From NCBI GenBank assembly GCA_021513695.1, contig CP084166.1, positions 640,001 through 704,000 on the forward strand: a stretch of 64,000 nucleotides of DNA. The letters run 5' to 3'. Source of the stretch: Candidatus Heimdallarchaeum aukensis (lineage in GTDB: Archaea; Asgardarchaeota; Heimdallarchaeia; Heimdallarchaeales; Heimdallarchaeaceae). Shown here one piece after another: positions 1,434-58,354 of the stretch. The notes beneath the pieces are model-generated. The model was not told where the DNA came from. It saw only the letters and a program-made list of their open reading frames with translations, and did no database searches. The translations under genes were made by a program, and so were the position numbers. Each line of letters begins with the position of its first letter. The stretch's first letter is position 1.

Positions 1434-4400
1434 TCATTTTTTTATTTCTAAATAGCCTAAATTGTAAAGAATTTGGAGATAAGATAGAGTTTTTCCTCTT
1501 TCTATGTCATCTTCAATTTTATTAATTAACTCTTCAATGAGGAAAAAGTCATTTTTATTCAGATATTTTTCTAGTTGTTTTTCTAAATACTTGCTTTGCT
1601 TAATTTTTTTAGAATCTCTAACTTTTATGGGGTTCTTCATCCATAAGTAAAGAAATGAGTTACATTTTTCTATAATTTCCTCCTTTTTACCATTAAATAC
1701 AGATGGATCCCCATTCCAACCTTCCGCATAGCTGTGAAAATTAGCTTCAAACCAAAGAATAATTGATTGAATGCTTAAATCTATGTCTAAAGTAATATCA
1801 GTTTCTGAAAACACATAAATCACAAAATGATCAGTTCGTGCGCTAGTCACTACAAAATTTTGATATTGAATCTTTCTTATATCTCCGGAACCTTTCTCTG
1901 TTAATTCATTTCCTATTGAAGAAATTGCTTGAAAGAAGCCTGATATAAGTGTTGAATCTCTTTGGAAGTCTGAACCCAAATCCACTTCAAAAATAGAAAT
2001 GGATGTTTCTTGATGGACAATTATTATCTTTTTTATTGAGTTAATCTTTAAATAATCATTATATGTAGAAATGTAAAATTCATTTGCTTTTCTTTTCCTA
2101 ATAACAAGCAAATAGAAAATTAGGAAAGCAATAGAAGAGGTTAGAATTGGTAAAATTATAAATAATAACATTTTTACTAAAAATAAATATGGATCTTTCC
2201 CATTTGGTGAATTAGGATTTGTAGGAGAGGGGGGAGATGTAGGAGTAACAGGATTAACAATTAGTTTAAAACCTAAAGTGATTTCAGAAGAGGAGGTATT
2301 AAGTTTAAAGTTTTCTTTTGTAATTTCTAAATCTAGAGAAAAGTTCCCTGATTGTATTCCTAATTTTGAGATATTTAAGGAAATATTTGTGTATTCATCA
2401 GTATTGATTACATTATAATATTCTGATAAGACTGTAATTCCATTCATTTTAATCTTTATATTTTCGCTAAATATAGGAATGATATTTTTATCATTGTCAG
2501 TTTCATTTGTAATCCTAAATGAAATATTTGCTATCAAATTCTGTTCTAATACAAACTCATTTTCTAAAGGATATAAGAGAGAGAAACCCATTTTGAAAAA
2601 GATTCTTAAGTAAATTGTCTTTGATTGATTATGATAATAAGAACTATTAAAAATAATGTCTATTGACTGAATTCCTACAGGAGAACTCAGAGAAACATTG
2701 GTGAAATAATAGTCTCCTAAATAAGAAAATTCTCCATTCGTCTTCCAGCTTGTATTAAACAGAATCTTTTCATTACTGATATATGTGAAAGAATAATTTG
2801 AATTCAGATTAGAAAGAGAGTAAATCCAACTTCTTATTGATAATTTCTCTCCACTAAATCGTTCCACAAGTGTTTCATTTGTCCAATTATCAGAAAAAGA
2901 TTCTACTTGCCATATAGTTTCAAGTCTTGCATAAGCTTTAACCTCTACACTTTTAGTTAGAAAACCAACTTCAGTCCCATTTTTCCAGTAAACAAAGATA
3001 GTCCATTCTCCAGGTGTATCAGAATTTTCAAATGAAGGATCGAGAGTAATATTTGTATAGAATTGATTATTCGATGAATCTAAACTACCAATAGTTGTAT
3101 AGCTAGAATTGTCAATATATTTTAATAAAGAAGAGATATTTGCTTTTATTGGGCTAATTTCTCCGTTTGGATTAAATAATGTAAAATTGATTATTCCAGA
3201 GCTTTCATTGTTTAACAAACTAGTGGAAAGATCTAGTTTAGAACCTTCATAACCATAAAAGTAATTATCTCCTTTTATCCAATATCCGAGATTGATTTCA
3301 TTTTGATCACTAGAAAAAACAGTAAGGCTGGTAACATAGTTAGGACTAGTTGTTTGTAAAGTAAAGTTACAAGCTTCTAAAGAATTATTAAGTTGAAGTC
3401 TATAGATATTATTTAATTTTAAGGTTGAGAGAGAGAAAGTTTTATTCATAACAGTTCGAGCATCATTAACAGACCAATCTTCTTGTGAAAAAATATCGAT
3501 TACTCTCTCGAATAGGAAGTAGGAAGTCACATTTGCTGAAGGCAGTTCCCAAAATATTTCCCAGTTAATTTCTCTTTCAGTAGTTTCATTACTTACACTA
3601 TAGAAAGAAATAGCATCCATGTCTCTGTAAAAAAGATAAGTGTTATTTATCTCTAAAATAATTGAAGTATTTGCTGTGACTACTTGAACACCAGAATTAG
3701 AAAGAGGGCTATTAAAAGATAAAATTTGTTCTCCATTAACTTGTAAATATAGTTCAAGAGGATTATTGAATAAAAGGTTATTTCCATTTTCGTCTGTTGG
3801 ACATATATCCACTATCAAAGACAAATCAAAAGAAGCTACAAATGGTTGCCAACCTCCGCTTTCTTCAAAATAAAAAGTTTTTCCATCATCAGAAGCCTTT
3901 CTTCCTCTCCAGATGAAAGAACTATCGCTACTATTGTCTATAATTGATAAATTAGCAACTAAAAAATATTGGCCTTTCTCTAATACTGTGGGGTTAAATT
4001 CATAATATGAAAAACTTCCTCCTAATAAGTTGTAATTTGATTCATTAAAAGGATTAGACAAAGCTTCAGTAAGAATATGATTCATATCAGGATATCCTGT
4101 CTGATTAGCCTTAACAACAAATAGATCAAGAGAATTATTTCCTAATCCTGTACCATAATCTACTTCTAAACTTATATTTATTCCATAAAACATTGCGTGA
4201 TCCCAAAAAATTTCAAATTCTTGAGCAAGCCCTATATAATCGAAATAAGAGATTGTACCATCAGTTTTCAAGTCGTCTCCCTCTATTACGTAGAAGTCTC
4301 TAATCCCTTCTATTTTTTCAATCATTAGTGTTAGGTCTTCATTAGGAAAATCGGATATTGGTTCGATAACAAAACTATTAGATCGTGAATTAGCTAAATC

Positions 4401-4667
4401 TAAAGTAAGATTCTCATATTGAGAAGTGATTATTGTGTCATAAACTGACAAATTTTTGCCTTTATCTGAAATAGAATTTATCTGAATATTATTTATAAAG
4501 ACAAGGTTTTCATCTATGTTTGTGGGTGAATAGTCTGTTTTGGGAGTAAAATTATTTTCTTTCATCTTTGAATTGAAAAAGTTTCCTTTTAAGGTAGAAA
4601 AAGGTAAAAGTATGGCAATAATAAAGAACACAATAAATAATACTTTTTTCCTTTTTACACCTTGCAA
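1434..4667 (-). CDS. Giant cell-surface glycoprotein (S-layer or adhesin-like). It has a signal peptide, an extracellular region of about 780 aa with more than 30 N-glycosylation sequons, a Pro/Thr/Ser linker, a transmembrane helix, and a cytoplasmic domain of about 250 aa that resembles Roadblock/LC7
   Basis: Signal/anchor: MQGVKRKKVLFIVFFIIAILLPFSTLKG. NxS/T sequons are dense throughout. Linker: PVTPTSPPSPTNPNSPNG. Transmembrane helix: LFLVKMLLFIILPILTSSIAFLIFYLLVIRKRK. The cytoplasmic segment KKIIIVHQETSISIFEVDLGSDFQRDSTLISGFFQAISSIGNELTEKGSGDIRKIQYQNFVVTSARTDHFVIYVFSE has a Roadblock/LC7-like alpha-beta pattern. Confidence 0.75.
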   Translation of the reverse strand: MQGVKRKKVLFIVFFIIAILLPFSTLKGNFFNSKMKENNFTPKTDYSPTNIDENLVFINNIQINSISDKGKNLSVYDTIITSQYENLTLDLANSRSNSFVIEPISDFPNEDLTLMIEKIEGIRDFYVIEGDDLKTDGTISYFDYIGLAQEFEIFWDHAMFYGINISLEVDYGTGLGNNSLDLFVVKANQTGYPDMNHILTEALSNPFNESNYNLLGGSFSYYEFNPTVLEKGQYFLVANLSIIDNSSDSSFIWRGRKASDDGKTFYFEESGGWQPFVASFDLSLIVDICPTDENGNNLLFNNPLELYLQVNGEQILSFNSPLSNSGVQVVTANTSIILEINNTYLFYRDMDAISFYSVSNETTEREINWEIFWELPSANVTSYFLFERVIDIFSQEDWSVNDARTVMNKTFSLSTLKLNNIYRLQLNNSLEACNFTLQTTSPNYVTSLTVFSSDQNEINLGYWIKGDNYFYGYEGSKLDLSTSLLNNESSGIINFTLFNPNGEISPIKANISSLLKYIDNSSYTTIGSLDSSNNQFYTNITLDPSFENSDTPGEWTIFVYWKNGTEVGFLTKSVEVKAYARLETIWQVESFSDNWTNETLVERFSGEKLSIRSWIYSLSNLNSNYSFTYISNEKILFNTSWKTNGEFSYLGDYYFTNVSLSSPVGIQSIDIIFNSSYYHNQSKTIYLRIFFKMGFSLLYPLENEFVLEQNLIANISFRITNETDNDKNIIPIFSENIKIKMNGITVLSEYYNVINTDEYTNISLNISKLGIQSGNFSLDLEITKENFKLNTSSSEITLGFKLIVNPVTPTSPPSPTNPNSPNGKDPYLFLVKMLLFIILPILTSSIAFLIFYLLVIRKRKANEFYISTYNDYLKINSIKKIIIVHQETSISIFEVDLGSDFQRDSTLISGFFQAISSIGNELTEKGSGDIRKIQYQNFVVTSARTDHFVIYVFSETDITLDIDLSIQSIILWFEANFHSYAEGWNGDPSVFNGKKEEIIEKCNSFLYLWMKNPIKVRDSKKIKQSKYLEKQLEKYLNKNDFFLIEELINKIEDDIERGKTLSYLQILYNLGYLEIKK

Positions 4668-4811
4668 TAAGAAGTCCTCTTTCTAATTTTATTGAGAGTT
4701 TTTTTTTCATTTTACTTAAATATTTTGTATAAATTAAAGTAATTAAAATTCTCTTTAAATAAAAAAAAGCAAAAAGAAAAAACATGATTAAGAAAGAAGT
4801 AAAAAATGAAT

Positions 4812-5975
4812 TCACAATAACCTTTCTTTTAATCTAAAAATAGCTTCTTCTAATGTCTCAATTTTTTGCGAGAAAGAAAATCTAACATAGTTACAGACTA
4901 TATTTTCATCATTTTCGGTGTGATAAAAACTTGAGCCTGGAACTACAGCAACACCTTTGTTTTTTACTAAGAAATCAGCAAAATCTGTGTCTCTCGTTTT
5001 AAAATTACTAATATCTGAAAACATATAATATGCGCCTTTAGGAATAATGGTTTTGAAACCTAGCTCATTTAATGATTTACTCAAGTAGTCTCTATTTTTT
5101 TGATATCTTTTTACTAGTTGGGAGAAATAGTCATCTTTAAGATCAAATGCTTTAATAGCAGCTTCTTGTAAAATTGAAGGAGCACAAACAGTCAGATAAT
5201 CGTGAACTTTTCTTATTCCTTTCATTAGTTTCTTTTCTGCAGCTACATAACCTATTCTCCATCCTGTAATTGAAAAAGTCTTACTAAAACCACTTATTGT
5301 TATTGTTCTTTCCTCCATCCCGGGAATACTTCCGAGACTTATGTGTTTTTCACCATCGTAGATGATATATTCGTAAATTTCATCTGTAATGGCGATAATA
5401 TCGTTATCTATACAAATGTCTGCAATAAGTTTCATTTCTTTAGAAGAAAATACTTTTCCTGAAGGATTATGGGGAGAATTGACAATTATAGCTTTAGTTT
5501 TTTTAGTTATTTCTTCTTTTAGTTTCTCTTCATCTATCGAAAAATCTTCTTGTTTCAATTGAACATATTTAGGTACTCCTTCTGCAATGTGTGTAATAGG
5601 AGTATAATTTTCGTACCAAGGTTCAAAAATAATCACTTCATCTGCAGGATTAAGAATAGAAAGAATACTACTACTTATTCCTTCACTAGCCCCACAACAA
5701 ACTGTTATTTCATCTTCGGGATCAACCTCTATTCCATTGTATCCTCTCAATTTTTCACTGATTTTCTCTCTTAAATTATAATTACCATAAGTTATAGAAT
5801 ACTGATGTTCTTTTTTTTCAATAGCTTCTATTATACCTTCAATAAGCTCTTGAGGGGGTTCAAAATCAGGCATGCCTTGAGAGAGGTTAATTGCTTGGTT
5901 GACTATAGCCTTTCTAGTCATTTCACGGATAGTGCTCTCTTCAAAACCTTCAAGTTTTTTGGCAAATTTAAGCAT
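4812..5975 (-). CDS. PLP-dependent aminotransferase, class I (aspartate/aromatic aminotransferase family)
   Basis: Motifs NSPHNPSGKVFS and SFSKTFSITGWRIGY (PLP-binding lysine). The protein is 387 aa. Confidence 0.9.
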   Translation of the reverse strand: MLKFAKKLEGFEESTIREMTRKAIVNQAINLSQGMPDFEPPQELIEGIIEAIEKKEHQYSITYGNYNLREKISEKLRGYNGIEVDPEDEITVCCGASEGISSSILSILNPADEVIIFEPWYENYTPITHIAEGVPKYVQLKQEDFSIDEEKLKEEITKKTKAIIVNSPHNPSGKVFSSKEMKLIADICIDNDIIAITDEIYEYIIYDGEKHISLGSIPGMEERTITISGFSKTFSITGWRIGYVAAEKKLMKGIRKVHDYLTVCAPSILQEAAIKAFDLKDDYFSQLVKRYQKNRDYLSKSLNELGFKTIIPKGAYYMFSDISNFKTRDTDFADFLVKNKGVAVVPGSSFYHTENDENIVCNYVRFSFSQKIETLEEAIFRLKERLL

Positions 5976-45627: not shown

Positions 45628-46938
45628 ATGAAGTTATCCAAGGACAAAGTCAACTATCTTATTTTTGAAGGTGGTGGAGGAAAAGGAGTTACTTATATTG
45701 GGGCTTTAGAAGCTCTTGAAGAATTAGGTATTCTCAGATTTACTGAAAAAAATATAGGAGAAAAGGTTGTTACTCATCTTGCTCCAAATTGCTTGAAAGG
45801 AGTAGCTGGAACTTCAGTTGGTTCACTTTTTGCTTTACTTGTATCTTTGGGCTACAACTCACAAGAAATAAGAGAATTATTAAAAAGCAACTTAACTGAC
45901 GAGTTTCTAGATACTATCGAATTTGGTTTGATTCAATCAATTTATAGCCAGCTTACTGAACAATCTTTTGTTAAAGACCCTCAACTAGAAATATCTACAA
46001 ATTTCGTTGAGAATAAATGGTCTTCTTTTCTTCAAAAACAAGAGAAATCTTTCAAAGATTTGTTTGCTTACCCTCTTAAAATGATCAAGCAAGCAAATTA
46101 TTATATCCTCTCAATGTTCATCAAATTTCTTCTTTATTATGAATCAAGAAAAATAAAGAATGAAAAACCATCTAACGAAACAGAAACTACATTTATCCCT
46201 ACATTACGAGACTTTGCGCAGTCAAAAACTCTAAAAAATGCTGTAGATAAAATTTTGGATAAACCAGCCGATGCTCTTAATAGTCTTAAATATGAATTTG
46301 GTTTTTTCCTTGGCAATGGGGCAAGAGAAGTTATAGATAGGTTAATTGAAGAAAGAACAGGAGTGAAAAACTGTACTTTCAATCAATTTTATGAAATTTT
46401 AGGAATTGATCTTGTTATTACTTCTTTTGATTTACAGACAAAACAAGTTGAATACTTAAGAAAAGATTCTAAATGGAAAAACCTTTGTGTGGCAGATGCA
46501 GTAAGAATGTCAATTTCTATTCCATTAGTCTTCAAACCTGTTGTTATTAACATGAAAGACGAGTTCATTCTTCCAATTACAGATGATGTTTCTTATGCTC
46601 ATTATTTCATTGATGGTGGAGCAGCAAACAATTTTCCCCTTCATGTTTTTGATGATAGAGAAGACAAACTAAATCCCTACGTTCTAGGATTTACTCTATC
46701 GTATAAAAGACAATATAATCCTTTTATTGAAGAAATTACTTTCTTTGAATATTTAGAAGATGTCTTCCTTTCAGTTCTTAAACAGACAACAAATTTACAA
46801 TTCAAAAAGAAAGAAGAACAAGAACAAGTGATAGAACTTGACCCAGAGTACATAAAAGTACTTGACTTTTCTTTTGATGAGATACCAGAAAAAACAATAC
46901 AAAAAGCAAAGAAGAAAACACTAGAATATTTCAAATGA
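45628..46938 (+). CDS. Patatin-like phospholipase (PNPLA) family protein
   Basis: Oxyanion hole GGGGKG, nucleophile elbow GTSVGS, and catalytic Asp motif DGGAANNFP. Confidence 0.85.
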   Translation: MKLSKDKVNYLIFEGGGGKGVTYIGALEALEELGILRFTEKNIGEKVVTHLAPNCLKGVAGTSVGSLFALLVSLGYNSQEIRELLKSNLTDEFLDTIEFGLIQSIYSQLTEQSFVKDPQLEISTNFVENKWSSFLQKQEKSFKDLFAYPLKMIKQANYYILSMFIKFLLYYESRKIKNEKPSNETETTFIPTLRDFAQSKTLKNAVDKILDKPADALNSLKYEFGFFLGNGAREVIDRLIEERTGVKNCTFNQFYEILGIDLVITSFDLQTKQVEYLRKDSKWKNLCVADAVRMSISIPLVFKPVVINMKDEFILPITDDVSYAHYFIDGGAANNFPLHVFDDREDKLNPYVLGFTLSYKRQYNPFIEEITFFEYLEDVFLSVLKQTTNLQFKKKEEQEQVIELDPEYIKVLDFSFDEIPEKTIQKAKKKTLEYFK

Positions 46939-47032
46939 TAATAATTTATTTGTTTCATCCAATGCAAAAATTTAGTAATCATTAAGAAAACTAACAGAAA
47001 TGTTTTTTTATCTTAAATAGATTTTTTTTTGA

Positions 47033-54126: not shown

Positions 54127-54372
54127 ATGGAAAATATTATCGAAGCAAAGGATATTACAAAAACTTACAACGGAAAAACAATTCTGAATAAACTTTCATT
54201 TCAAGTCAAAAAAGGAGAATTATTCACATTAATTGGCCATAACGGTGCAGGAAAAACAACTCTTTTCAAGATTCTTACAGGACAAATTAAACAAGATAGT
54301 GGTACAGCAAGAATCTTTGATACTAATGTTGAATCGCAATTAAAGAGTAAGTATAAATTACGTATCAGCTAT
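54127..54372 (+). pseudogene. ABC transporter ATP-binding protein, N-terminal fragment interrupted by an IS insertion
   Basis: Walker A GHNGAGKTT ... RISY, then sequence unrelated to ABC ATPases. The conserved continuation VPQADLLWDNLTIKEN reappears at 56217. Confidence 0.8.
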
Positions 54373-56216
54373 GATTTACTTTTTTACGTAAAGTTTTTCG
54401 CACTCTGTCTTGCAAGAGAGAAAACTAAAGGAAGTTTAATCTCTTGAACTCAACCAAGCCATACAATGCCATGAAGGGGTTGAGACAGACATCATACACG
54501 AAACGTGGGAATCATAAAGAAGAATAGAAAGTTTTTCTTTCTTTTCTTCACTCCACGAGAGACAAAAAAAAGAATTACTCCTATAATAGAGAAGGAGTTA
54601 CTTTCCTTTTTGTCTACTGGGACTGCAACCAATGGCTGAGCCCTCGGCAAACAGTGAAATGGGAAGAACTGAACCTTTGACCAGTGAGGTAATCAGTGAT
54701 AGTTGTTCCTCGAGGACGAAAAAGATCTCCAAGGAACTTACGAGCGATATTCATTGCTCCTGTGAGGTCAGAGTGGAAAGTGTAATTGCAAGAGGAGCAA
54801 TGAACTAAACCTCTTACTGGACGGATAACTTTCCTTCCACAACGAGCACAGTGAGAAGATGTCCCTCTTTCATTCATTGTTAATATTCGGTGAGGTTCAA
54901 AACCTCGAAGTATCAATGCCCGACGGAGAAGAGCAAGAATAAGAGAAAAGTTCCACCGATGAAGTTTCCTGCGAAACTTACGAGTACTTTTACCTTTTCC
55001 TTTCTCCTCACGAACATGTTTAGGATAACCTACAACGACGAAAAGGTCATATATTCGCGCATAAGTCTCTATCGTCTGCACGATGTCGCTTACAAATTGG
55101 TAAATATAGGCTCGTTTAACGTTTCTATATCTTCTTCGGAGGAGACTAAGAAAACGATAAACTTGGTGTTTTTTACCCGACTGGTCATTTAAAGCCGCTT
55201 TCCTCTGAAGACGGGAAAGTTTGAGTTTATATCGATGATTGACTCTATTCCACTGTTTGGTATACCAGAACTTTATCTCTTTGTTTGTTAATTTCTTTTT
55301 AGGGGTCAGTAACACTCCTGTAGCAGGAATGTTTATCCCTATATCTATTCCCAGCACAGCTGGGGGAAGAGAAGAAGAACTTTTTTCTTCAGGAGGATAA
55401 AAAGAAGAAGGAAGAACTTTTAATTGGAAATACACCCACCACTCACGTGTAGAACGTTTATATCTTAGTTCTAGACTTTTTATTCTTCCTTTCTTTAACT
55501 CCTTCTGGTGGAAATCACTCATCTCTAAAGGTAACCATATTTTCTGATGATAAGGGGTGTTTCTTTTCCACGTATCTAACGAGTCTCTTATCCCCACCCA
55601 CCAACGAGTGAGAGTGTTATTCTTCTCTTTTGGTAGATGAACGAGAATGAACCTCTTTGCATTAATTAGTTGTTTTCTAGCTCTCTTTATTGGAGGACGA
55701 GTATTGTTAGGCCTATACCCTTGTTCATATAGTTGCACGCCTATATCTCTACATTCTTGGAATTCATTGTGAGAACAATAAAGGAACATTTTCTTAAGAT
55801 CGTGAGGAACAGTCTTTCTTCTCTCTTCTTCTTTAACTTTTGAAGTAGTTAGCGTCAGTTCATCTAGTTTTCCTCTATGTACTCTTATTTTCCCTCTCTT
55901 AGTTTTAGTACATATTTTTCCTCTGTTATGATGTATTATTCTCACATACTTCTCTATTATCCTCGTGTCTCTCCCCGTTATTCTCCTTAACTTTTCCTTC
56001 TTCCTCGTCGTCAATACCTCATTCTTTATTCTCACTTTCAAGGTTTTGACGACGTCCTCCATCTTTCTCTTTTCTCCTTCTTTCCTCTTTTTTTGTTTCT
56101 TCTTCTCTTTTTTATTCTACTTTTTTTCCCTATAAAAACCCCTCCCCTTCTTCTCTTCCCTTTTTTCTCTCTACATCTTCCTCAACAATTATAAATTACG
56201 CAAAAAATAGACGCAT
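54373..56216 (-). mobile_element. IS200/IS605-family element carrying only tnpB (IS1341-like) inserted into an ABC ATPase gene. It is GC-rich relative to the host
   Basis: Joining 54372 to 56217 restores a perfect ABC ATPase reading frame (..RISY|VPQADLLW..). The 1844-bp insert carries only tnpB. GC content is clearly higher than the flanks. Confidence 0.8.
54614..56062 (-). CDS. tnpB: TnpB (OMEGA) RuvC-like RNA-guided endonuclease
   Basis: RuvC-I AVLGIDIGINIPATGV. RuvC-III plus zinc finger NERGTSSHCARCG...HCSSCNYTFHSDLTGAMNIARKF. The protein is 482 aa. Confidence 0.85.
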   Translation of the reverse strand: MEDVVKTLKVRIKNEVLTTRKKEKLRRITGRDTRIIEKYVRIIHHNRGKICTKTKRGKIRVHRGKLDELTLTTSKVKEEERRKTVPHDLKKMFLYCSHNEFQECRDIGVQLYEQGYRPNNTRPPIKRARKQLINAKRFILVHLPKEKNNTLTRWWVGIRDSLDTWKRNTPYHQKIWLPLEMSDFHQKELKKGRIKSLELRYKRSTREWWVYFQLKVLPSSFYPPEEKSSSSLPPAVLGIDIGINIPATGVLLTPKKKLTNKEIKFWYTKQWNRVNHRYKLKLSRLQRKAALNDQSGKKHQVYRFLSLLRRRYRNVKRAYIYQFVSDIVQTIETYARIYDLFVVVGYPKHVREEKGKGKSTRKFRRKLHRWNFSLILALLRRALILRGFEPHRILTMNERGTSSHCARCGRKVIRPVRGLVHCSSCNYTFHSDLTGAMNIARKFLGDLFRPRGTTITDYLTGQRFSSSHFTVCRGLSHWLQSQ

Positions 56217-56951
56217 GTTCCACAAGCAGATCTTCTTTGGGATAATCTAACTATAAAAGAAAACATCTCTCTAATGGGTAATCTTTATGGATTAAAGAAA
56301 GCACAAATTGAAGAAAAAGCAAACAAATTTCTTACTGATTTTAATTTGGTTGAACATCAAAAAAAACTTGCTGATAAACTGTCTGGAGGTATGAAAAAGA
56401 AATTATCAATTGCTATGTCTTTGATGAATGATCCATTACTTCTATTTTTAGATGAACCAACTACAGGACTTGATGTTGAAGCAAGAACTTTGTTAATTGA
56501 AGATTTGAAAAGGCTGAAAGAAGAAGGAATAACCATTATTCTTACTACCCATTTAATGGAAGTAGCAGAATCACTAGCGTCAAAAGTTTTAATCATCGAC
56601 AAAGGACAAGTAGTTGCATTTGGAACAGTAGAGAATATAATTAATGAATCTATAGGTGATAAAATCCTCCAAGTAGGATTAATCAAAAGAAATAATGAAT
56701 TTGAAGATTTTATTGAAAAAGAAATCAAACATTCAAAAGAAGTCGATTATATTCAAATCAAACAAACATTTTTCTTCAAGGGAGAAAAGTTACCAGAACT
56801 TATACAAGTAATTTCTTCTTCTGAATTTATTAAAGACATCTATGAAATTAACATTAAAAAAAGTTCTCTAAAGGAAGCTTTTCTCTTTATTACTCATAAA
56901 ATTTACAAGAATGGGAATAACTTTAATTCTTTACTGGAGGTTCAAAAATGA
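56217..56951 (+). pseudogene. ABC transporter ATP-binding protein, C-terminal fragment separated from its N-terminal part by the tnpB element
   Basis: VPQADLLWDNLTIKEN..., signature LSGGMKKKLSIA, Walker B LLFLDEPTTGLD, H-loop TTHLMEV. The annotated ATG at 56274 is internal. Confidence 0.8.
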
Positions 56952-58354
56952 TCTTATACCTTACTCTTATTCGAATAAAACAGATAATCAGAGAAAAGGA
57001 ATTTTACTTTTATGTAATAGTTTTTCCATTATTCTTCTTAATTCTATTTGGTTTTCTTAGTTCAAGCTGGGTACAAACAACAACAACTATTCCTATTGGA
57101 TACATTTCTGAAGATTTAGGAATTAGTGATGATATCCTTAACGAAACAATAATGTTTGATGAAGCATTCTACAATTTCTTGAACAAACACCACTTAGAAA
57201 ATAATATCAAAACTTTCGAGATACATAATTATACAGAAGTAAATTCTTTGGAAAATGATATCAACAATAGAATTATCGATGGAGGAATAGTAATTCCTTT
57301 CGATTTTTCAGAACAAATGCTTAACATATCAAGGTTTTACAGTTCTCTTATTCTAGTTAATTTCCTTGGGAGTCAATTTAATACTTATGCTTCAGAATCT
57401 GCTAATATTTCTGCAGCTATTAACTCTCTTTCATCTCATCTTCAAGGAACAGCTAATTTATCTTTACTTTTCTATGGTGATATAACAATCGACACAGCTA
57501 TGACTTCTTATTCTGTTCTTTGGCAAGTGATAAACGACTATGTTCAAAACACAACTCTTTCTTACACTGAAAAGATTTGGAAGGTTATTAAGAATGAATT
57601 CGATCTATCTTTCAATTTCTCTTCTACAAGTAATGATTCTTCGCAAAACTCTATAACCTATAGTATTATCGTAGTTGATTCTGGAACAGGAGAATTAGTT
57701 ACCAACTTCAGAAAAGAATATATTTCCAATATCCTTCCAGGTCAAATTATACAAAGCATCCTAATGTCTTCAATCTCTGTAATATGGTTGACTGAAATGG
57801 AAGAACGAAAAGAAATTTTAAAACGATTAAAATTGACTAAACTTACTGCTGGAGGATATATAGGAAGTATAATTCTCGCATGGGGAACTATTGCTTTACT
57901 TCAAGGTTTATTTTTGATTACTGTTTCTGCTGTGCTTGGATTCTTCAGTTTTTCTGTTGGTCCATTAGCTTGGTTGATGACTATTTTGACCTTAGTTTTT
58001 CTAGGTTTCATTACTGCAACTATTTCTTTACTTGTGACAAGTTTCATTAAACCTCGAACGGCAACTCCAATATTAGTTCTTTCTAGTACTGTTCTGGCTA
58101 TGTTTGTAGGAGAATATTTCTTTCAAGTTAAACCTGCTTTTACTTTTGCAAAGAAAAACTTTACTTGGTTAGACATATTTCCTGTTCGACCAGCTTTCCT
58201 TGTTATGAAGAATGCTCTATTATTAGGAAAAAATGGAGACATCACTATTTTGCTTTTTGACTTTGCTCTTGTTGTTTTATGGACAATTTTAATATTTGCC
58301 ATAAGTAGTTTCGCTTTTAGCAAACTAAAACTCAAATATATAGAAAAAGAATGA
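56948..58354 (+). CDS. ABC-2 family transporter permease (partner of the disrupted ATPase)
   Basis: N-terminal transmembrane helix, large external domain, five C-terminal transmembrane helices. The start overlaps the ATPase stop (ATGA). Confidence 0.75.
   Translation: MILYLTLIRIKQIIREKEFYFYVIVFPLFFLILFGFLSSSWVQTTTTIPIGYISEDLGISDDILNETIMFDEAFYNFLNKHHLENNIKTFEIHNYTEVNSLENDINNRIIDGGIVIPFDFSEQMLNISRFYSSLILVNFLGSQFNTYASESANISAAINSLSSHLQGTANLSLLFYGDITIDTAMTSYSVLWQVINDYVQNTTLSYTEKIWKVIKNEFDLSFNFSSTSNDSSQNSITYSIIVVDSGTGELVTNFRKEYISNILPGQIIQSILMSSISVIWLTEMEERKEILKRLKLTKLTAGGYIGSIILAWGTIALLQGLFLITVSAVLGFFSFSVGPLAWLMTILTLVFLGFITATISLLVTSFIKPRTATPILVLSSTVLAMFVGEYFFQVKPAFTFAKKNFTWLDIFPVRPAFLVMKNALLLGKNGDITILLFDFALVVLWTILIFAISSFAFSKLKLKYIEKE

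Follow-up and report, generated by a model that had tools for sequence, protein, structure and literature searches.

The 64,000-nucleotide stretch of the Candidatus Heimdallarchaeum aukensis genome analyzed here (contig CP084166.1, positions 640,001 to 704,000 of the forward strand; hereafter the window) contains an ABC ATPase gene interrupted by a mobile element that encodes TnpB. Inserted here is an intact copy of an insertion sequence (IS) of Heimdallarchaeia that occurs in many copies and encodes no transposase. Its most fitting description is a solo-TnpB IS whose ends are inverted repeats, whose core is AT and whose RuvC site is rearranged; it has been found so far almost only in Asgard archaea. 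The landing of a TnpB-only element in a gene is an ordinary kind of event. What is unusual is that the ends of this element are unlike those of the IS605 family.

The insertion in the ABC ATPase gene

Three open reading frames (ORFs) are called in the region: one of 106 codons (54127..54447, plus strand), one of 482 codons (54614..56062, minus strand) and one of 225 codons (56274..56951, plus strand), the last overlapping a 468-codon permease ORF. The initial annotation proposed that a TnpB element had inserted precisely into an ABC ATPase gene, and the comparison with a related genome supports this. Joining 54127..54372 to 56217..56951, thus 54372 to 56217 as had been suggested, restores a single 981-nt ORF that encodes an ABC ATPase of 326 aa. 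The left fragment covers positions 1-63 of the Pfam ABC_tran model and the right fragment positions 64-137, so the two are exact complements of one domain. Both are also colinear with the orthologous locus of Candidatus Heimdallarchaeum endolithica (L013).

In H. endolithica the ortholog (P0091) is an uninterrupted protein of 326 aa, 87% identical to the joined ATPase. It lies in the same neighborhood, with a leucine-rich repeat protein gene upstream and the ABC-2 permease gene downstream. The H. endolithica DNA across the junction, CGTATCAGCTAT followed directly by GTTCCACAAGC, is identical to the joined window sequence. A metagenome contig from JGI (Joint Genome Institute) that is 98.7% identical to the window (L014) has the insertion too. 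Neither half of the split gene shows further lesions, and their DNA is 85-87% identical to that of the uninterrupted sister allele; hence the insertion is younger than the split of the two species.

The gene is split between the Walker A motif and the Q-loop (ISY/VPQ), with the element antisense to it. The left piece reads 24 further codons into the element and then meets a stop, and the right piece could at best give a product of 225 aa without Walker A. A search with Rfam found no group I or group II intron in the insert. Since the element is antisense to the gene and has no intron, the ATPase is not rescued by splicing. The ABC-2 exporter had been presumed to be inactivated, and this holds for the ATPase gene, which is disrupted, whereas the permease gene itself is intact.

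The insert is 1844 bp long. When it is aligned with 12 other copies of the element, similarity ends within 2-3 nt of 54373 and 56216. Because the two junctions have 3 nt in common (ATG on the plus strand), the boundaries are ambiguous by 2-3 nt. In the symmetric reading the element occupies 54373..56214, with AT at 54371-54372 and again at 56215-56216.

Ends and target site of the element

All 12 full copies are built alike on the element strand: a flank ending in C is followed by AT and by an element beginning with G, and the element ends in C and is followed by AT and a flank beginning with G. The exceptions are single changes to A, of the last G in the window copy and L005 and of the first G in L008. 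The empty allele in L013 reads GGAAC-AT-AGCT. Thus AT is present at both junctions of 12/12 full copies and once in the empty allele. In a more distant subfamily at 42% identity (subfamily 3, three copies) the repeat sequences are unrelated, yet C-AT-G is found at five of the six junctions, AT included; the left end of L142 is ambiguous, and the right end in this subfamily finishes CTC-AT.

Starting from CATG, the left end can be aligned in register with the reverse complement of the right end; the two are imperfect terminal inverted repeats. In subfamily 2 the repeats (CATGCTTTACTTTTTGCGTAATTTTGCGAAC and CATGATTTACTTTTTGCGAAGTTTGTCGAAC) agree at 26-28 of 34 positions in five of six copies and at 22 of 34 in L004, a match that none of 20000 random window pairs equaled. 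The repeats are weaker in subfamily 1 and in the window copy (17-20 of 34). Each end has two subterminal TTTTKCGWA motifs. The repeat tip is CATGMTTTACTTTTT, with a variant at the left end of subfamily 1. Folded as single-stranded DNA, the 70 nt of the left end form no hairpin: the minimum free energy (MFE) is 0 kcal/mol for either strand (z = +0.9 to +1.3). For the right end, folding as DNA is not more stable than in shuffled sequence.

The flanks are constrained as well. The right end is followed by G or A in 18/18 junctions (G in 15). Position -2, before C-AT, is T in 0/12 flanks and in none of the additional copies L080, L015 and L143; subfamily 1 has A or G there, and all six copies of subfamily 2 have C. 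At the equivalent position the right end of the element has T (TCAT). The element sits between two ATs within a 5'-V-C-AT-R-3' site.

Three other readings of the site were rejected. If the target-adjacent motif (TAM) were CATG and the boundary lay after the G, as for a Y1 enzyme, the empty site would be GGAACATGGCT, but the sister allele is GGAACATAGCT. Targeting of start codons was considered because four copies appeared to lie against long co-oriented ORFs, at the ATG within CATG; on translation only L010 did so. An 11-nt direct repeat, TATAAATTACG (54352-54362 and 56190-56200), is no mechanistic feature, since its host copy is native ABC coding sequence that is nearly the same in the empty allele, and 2.6 kb of AT-rich DNA should contain repeats of this length by chance.

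Some distant members of the family (L139, L140 and L141) lie immediately before a ribosomal protein operon or an Sm-like gene and have the same orientation. The distance from the TnpB stop is 295 nt to the rpl3 start in L139 and L140 and 486 nt to the LSM gene in L141; the rpl3 layout is seen in two samples. With start-codon targeting rejected for the close copies, this placement may reflect selection for harmless sites.

Copies, subfamilies and relatives

A scan of the H. endolithica chromosome located at least 12 loci of the element, with common sharp boundaries. Apart from one mosaic, the copies belong to two subfamilies, with about 90% and about 80% identity to the window copy, and they range in length from 1787 to 1871 bp. 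The loci are unrelated, and at least 7 of 12 copies lie within ORFs, in both orientations. The tnpB frame is intact in the window copy and in the copies of subfamily 1 and is broken in several others. Because it is present in many copies at unrelated loci, most of them interrupting ORFs, the element is an active or recently active insertion sequence and not a domesticated gene.

Domestication had been raised in the initial annotation in the form of an OMEGA nuclease, that is, a TnpB that no longer moves and serves a host function at this locus. The lack of a transposase in cis and the intact ORF would agree with it. The many copies with shared sharp ends exclude such a role, several of them have a decayed tnpB, and the window copy has disrupted a conserved gene which the sister species keeps whole; we give the idea practically no credence.

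Among the decaying copies of H. endolithica, the longest frame on the tnpB strand is 193 codons in L010, 397 in L011, 414 in L008 and 470 in L007; L008 has also lost the TATA block described below. The mosaic copy L002 (CP084167.1 3317853-3326783, element at 3840-5694) has the left end of subfamily 1 and the right end of subfamily 2. It is about 85% identical to both, which suggests recombination or gene conversion between the subfamilies. L007 contains a second, inverted right-end fragment (131-203), 3.6 kb upstream of the full copy.

The GC (guanine plus cytosine) content of the insert, 38.2%, is above the 28.7% of its flanks, as noted initially. The recent horizontal arrival that was read from this difference is not supported. 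The full-length copies measured in two species all have 35-39% GC (12/12) and the relatives are almost entirely Asgard, so the higher GC is a family trait and no evidence of recent arrival. What is recent is this particular insertion, since both halves of the gene are still intact.

Full-length relatives of the TnpB at 81-91% identity are found in Ca. H. endolithica, Ca. H. aukensis and metagenome-assembled genomes of Heimdallarchaeaceae, and the protein clusters include one with 31 member sequences and another with 18. The family is narrow: of 1.84 billion cluster representatives, about 105 match at E <= 1e-30. Relatives recovered by the protein search with 30% identity or more are almost all Asgard (Heimdall, Thor) where named. 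The sole named non-Asgard match is P0017, a fragment 83% identical to the TnpB and labeled Candidatus Aenigmatarchaeota; the label may reflect a binning error or transfer.

The TnpB protein

The initial annotation described a TnpB of 482 aa with intact RuvC-I, RuvC-III and zinc-finger motifs, on which alignment, Pfam, profile and Foldseek results agree. In Pfam only the Cas12f1-like TNB zinc ribbon (PF07282) is detected, at 1.2e-8 and above the cut-off; the protein misses the OrfB_IS605 model. The NCBIfam model guided_TnpB gives 77.5 bits (E 1.1e-21), short of its curated cut-off of 100. Neither the IS200_TnpB nor the IS607_TnpB model is reached, and the protein is outside the named NCBIfam TnpB subfamilies. 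A family profile of 41 sequences, run against the PDB, matched Cas12f/TnpB chains at 4.8e-20 to 1e-17 (Cas12f at 4.8e-20) and Fanzor2 at 7.2e-10; ISDra2 TnpB was matched only at 0.03, and Fanzor1 gave no match at E <= 0.1.

The AlphaFold (AF2) model of the protein has a mean predicted local distance difference test (pLDDT) score of 82.6. Searched with Foldseek, the model matched AsCas12f, OsCas12f, ISFba1 TnpB and ISDra2 TnpB over 460-490 columns, with E values down to 3e-14. The mimivirus Fanzor2 also matched over most of the length. As modeled, the protein has the TnpB/Cas12f fold.

In the alignment of the 41 sequences D240 (LGIDIG), E398 (NERGTS) and D432 (HSDLTGAMNIA) are invariant, as are the zinc-finger cysteines C405, C408 and C422; C425 is nearly so. 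RuvC-II, which the initial annotation did not mention, is altered: the site of the canonical glutamate is a nearly invariant glycine, G345, and the invariant E398 stands instead six residues before the first CxxC. Relocated RuvC-II glutamates have been described as the "Ealt" type with D-Phi-G (PMC10711439) and as "RIIr" branches (PMC10691335), which share the glycine, the position of the glutamate and, in RuvC-III, the family consensus NADxN (HSDLT in the window protein). Judged by its residues, the TnpB is of this rearranged RuvC-II type, with the glutamate relocated to E398. In a test with the published regular expressions (PMC10711439) the D{P}G + Ealt class matches residues 240-432, and the DPG + Ealt "pro-Fanzor" fingerprint has no match. 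Compared in this way, by residues and regular expression, the family differs from the described Ealt/RIIr TnpBs in being narrow and almost all Asgard.

The relocated glutamate is shared with Fanzor and pro-Fanzor proteins, and some Fanzors sit in transposons that have inverted repeats and short duplications (PMC10711439). Unlike these, the TnpB has DIG rather than DPG in RuvC-I, its family profile matches Cas12f far better than Fanzor2, and its host is a prokaryote. The nuclease is apparently active. In two distant representatives, P0217 (852 aa) and P0226 (736 aa), the N-terminus has MazE/MraZ-like or MarR/HTH_20 domains; these proteins may be exapted regulatory forms.

The 3' RNA, predicted guide and leader

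An omega-RNA had been expected at the 3' end of tnpB and the right end of the element, and a structured RNA of this kind is supported there. Over the last ~45 nt of tnpB and the next 241 nt, from its stop codon to the right end, variable hairpins are interspersed with conserved blocks. RNAalifold, applied to 13 copies, gave 77 pairs, 8 with compensatory double changes, and a long-range helix in which GUUUGC in the 3' end of tnpB pairs with GUAAAU at the right-end tip. Paired cells made up 98.7%, as compared with 40-51% when the partners were slid by 1-3 columns, and the covariation score was 0.156 against at most 0.06 in the slid controls. In the 42%-identity subfamily the 3' region is different, and equally conserved and stable (consensus energy -71 kcal/mol). 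No Rfam family reaches its gathering score in the window, and matches to the insert at E <= 10 are noise. We take the ~280-nt structured 3' RNA to be the omega-RNA, with putative ends.

By analogy with the IS607 and IS605 TnpB systems, in which the guide comes from the flank (bioRxiv 10.1101/2023.11.20.567912; PMC10711439), we propose that the scaffold ends ...GUAAAUCAU and that the guide of the window copy would be AGCUGAUACGUAAUUUAUAC. This predicted guide matches the empty allele of H. endolithica at 19 of 20 positions.

Upstream of tnpB lies the polypyrimidine tract reported for the plus strand, and the report holds: C+T is 89.5% over 56063..56186. The 124-nt segment from 56055 reaches 90.3% C+T on that strand, the highest in the whole 64-kb window. 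In 11/12 copies there is a GGGGTTTTTATAGG block, some 70 nt before the ATG, along with purine runs of variable length; in other copies the composition of the leader is kept and its length differs. The leader is probably an archaeal TATA box followed by a purine-rich 5' untranslated region, the promoter function being predicted.

Search for a mobilizing enzyme

The initial annotation reported no tnpA, and none is present in the 64-kb window; no tnpA or Y1 (HUH) gene lies beside any family member examined. No transposase gene adjoins TnpB in seven distinct distant genomic contexts. A serine-recombinase motif of the YxRVSxxxQ type is missing from the 264 ORFs of the window and the Asgard loci. 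None of the distant representatives is a transposase fusion, the long relatives having helix-turn-helix or MazE-like N-termini, and 11 ORFs flanking distant members show no mutual similarity that would mark a conserved neighbor.

An autonomous partner was sought through the repeat tip, by scanning metagenomes with CATGMTTTACTTTTTN{0,1}RCG. There was none among the matches listed, which were mostly chance; the real elements among them (L044, L075, L080) were the same tnpB element or its right-end tip. Viral contigs contained only TnpB relatives 21-30% identical, without the conserved RNA 22-mer.

Mechanism of mobilization

We lean, with limited confidence, to the explanation that the element moved as double-stranded DNA by a recombinase acting in trans at the AT core, with TnpB promoting its copying into the empty site and the TCAT right end sparing the occupied one. 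The recombinase would exchange strands at the AT core, or duplicate the AT; the closest known reaction would be the matching-dinucleotide crossover of the IS607 serine transposase. TnpB with its 3' RNA, the guide read from the flank after the right end, would cut the empty site (TAM about VCAT, plus flank), and homologous recombination would then restore the copy, as for IS605 and IS607 TnpBs. With TCAT at the right end and never a T at that position in targets, the occupied locus would be spared from cutting. On double-stranded excision the empty junction would be CGTATCAGCTATGTTCCACAAGC and the circle junction ...AAAGTAAATC-AT-GCGTCTATTTT.

IS607 elements provide the model. Their serine recombinase crosses over at a matching GG through a double-stranded circle, and the TnpB TAM, TGGG, is also the target, while the right end, TCGG, differs from it at one position and so avoids self-cleavage (bioRxiv 10.1101/2023.11.20.567912; PMC10711439). 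The present element resembles them in three ways: a single dinucleotide recurs in the target and at each junction, the nucleotide that follows the right end is fixed, and the target looks like the ends of the element joined together. As in CboIStron and ISXfa1, the left flank and the right-end tip differ at a single position (VCAT/TCAT here, TGGG/TCGG in CboIStron), and tnpB is followed by a structured RNA that runs to the right end. Unlike them, the element has no serine recombinase gene in cis, its core is AT and not GG, it contains no group I intron and lies antisense to the host gene, and its protein does not reach the IS607_TnpB model.

Several points weigh against this explanation. A recombinase gene was not found in the TnpB contexts, the window or the Asgard loci. 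Terminal inverted repeats are present in the element, and IS607 elements are said to have none (PMC6188088). The AT core is palindromic and so gives no orientation information, and the junctions by themselves fit a 2-nt crossover, a 2-bp duplication or an insertion 3' of VCAT alike. The RNA covariation is mostly a single split between two subfamilies, and the guide and TAM derive from 13-18 junctions.

A serious rival, if an unlikely one, is a non-autonomous cut-and-paste element moved by an unlinked DDE transposase that duplicates 2 bp, AT, in CATG-like sites. It accounts for the terminal inverted repeats with two subterminal motifs at each end, and for the single AT of the empty site becoming two after insertion. 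In a census of TnpBs inverted repeats occurred only around those associated with DDE enzymes, and solo TnpBs shared their ends with autonomous elements (PMC10691335). Against this rival, a DDE gene was not found nearby, and the preference in the flanks is one-sided, with position -2 never T and always C in subfamily 2. The C-AT-G target also copies the joined ends of the element (..TC-AT-G..), as is typical of site-specific recombination and not of DDE integration. The 2-bp-duplicating family considered, IS630/Tc1-mariner, has inverted repeats in common with the element but duplicates TA, and here the dinucleotide is AT.

The initial annotation placed the element in the IS605 family as an IS1341-type member. 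As a tnpB-only mobile element, about 1.8 kb long and multicopy, it resembles the IS1341 group of IS200/IS605, and some relatives are labeled "IS605 OrfB family transposase" in their sources. An IS1341-type element would be excised and inserted as single-stranded DNA by a Y1 (HUH) TnpA in trans, 3' of VCAT and with the right end TCAT. The junctions can be read in this way, without a duplication and with a similar tetranucleotide at the right end, as for IS608, where the tetranucleotides are TTAC and TCAA. It is the ends that do not fit. On neither strand does the left end have the subterminal hairpin, and shuffled sequence folds as well as the right end does. From a palindromic CATG the two ends run in register as inverted repeats, AT stands on both sides, and the G or A after the right end is not predicted by Y1 insertion. 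IS200/IS605 elements are defined by subterminal hairpins at both ends and by the lack of terminal inverted repeats, and this element departs from both. No Y1 gene lies beside any examined family member, and the protein misses both OrfB_IS605 and the IS200_TnpB model. An IS607-like crossover or a 2-bp duplication fits better than Y1 because of the inverted-repeat ends, the missing left-end hairpin and the AT found on both sides and once in the empty allele. We regard IS1341-type movement as quite improbable, and of the serine, DDE and Y1 enzymes the last is the least likely candidate.

Finally, the element may represent a distinct IS family, defined by inverted-repeat ends and a strict C-AT-G core and moved either by a recombinase new to TnpB or through TnpB-driven copying alone. 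Such a family would unite junctions of the IS607 core-dinucleotide kind with ends that are inverted repeats, in the archaeal lineage nearest to eukaryotes. This reading appears improbable as well.

Coordinates of the features

Table 1. Features of the split ABC ATPase gene and of the inserted element (window coordinates)
Feature	Position	Strand	Description and basis
ABC ATPase 5' fragment	54127..54372	+	Codons 1-82 with Walker A; ABC_tran 1-63; colinear with L013
Predicted guide template, 20 nt after right end and AT	54351..54370	-	AGCTGATACGTAATTTATAC on element strand; predicted by analogy with IS607/IS605 TnpB
AT dinucleotide, right-end side	54371..54372	.	Junction alignments of 13 copies; single AT in empty L013
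Right-end terminal inverted repeat	54373..54394	-	Reverse complement GATTTACTTTTTTACGTAA...; left end compared with reverse-complemented right end
Candidate omega-RNA scaffold, ~280 nt	54373..54652	-	Overlaps last 36 coding nt and stop codon of tnpB; ends at right-end tip
tnpB, 482 aa	54614..56062	-	RuvC D240 / E398 (relocated) / D432; C4 zinc finger C405, C408, C422, C425
Purine-rich leader	56063..56186	-	89.5% purine on element strand; TATA-like box TTTTTATA at 56131-56138, 69 nt upstream of ATG
Left-end terminal inverted repeat	56193..56214	-	GCGTCTATTTTTTGCGTAA...; left end compared with reverse-complemented right end
AT dinucleotide, left-end side	56215..56216	.	Junction alignments; L013 empty site
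ABC ATPase 3' fragment	56217..56951	+	Q-loop VPQ, signature motif, Walker B, C-terminal domain; ABC_tran 64-137; colinear with L013
ABC-2 permease gene	56948..58354	+	Intact, overlaps ATPase stop codon; ABC2_membrane_3 5.9e-18; same layout in L013

In H. endolithica the ABC-2 operon is followed by a patatin-like gene (L013 7669-8981); in the window this gene is at 45643-46955, about 10 kb away, inverted and on the other side, which indicates a rearrangement between the two species.

Significance

A literature search found no paper that mentions both Heimdallarchaeum and TnpB. The Heimdallarchaeum genome paper only counts transposase families (PMC8813620), and these have no searchable entry in its supplements or in those of the archaeal IS survey. 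For annotation, the lesson is that a "TnpB alone" should not be assigned to IS605 before its ends have been inspected. For practical use, the family provides a compact archaeal nuclease, predicted to be RNA-guided, whose guide RNA can be defined and whose TAM is predicted to be short (about VCAT), and the empty allele of the sister species is a ready natural target for testing it.

TnpB-only elements are common, and their mobility is usually assumed rather than demonstrated. Here is a narrow family, Asgard wherever named, that has sharp ends, a strict C-AT-G site and no adjacent transposase in the members examined. A serine recombinase as its partner would extend IS607-type transposition at a core dinucleotide to elements with inverted-repeat ends and an AT core; with any other enzyme, the pairing with TnpB would be new.

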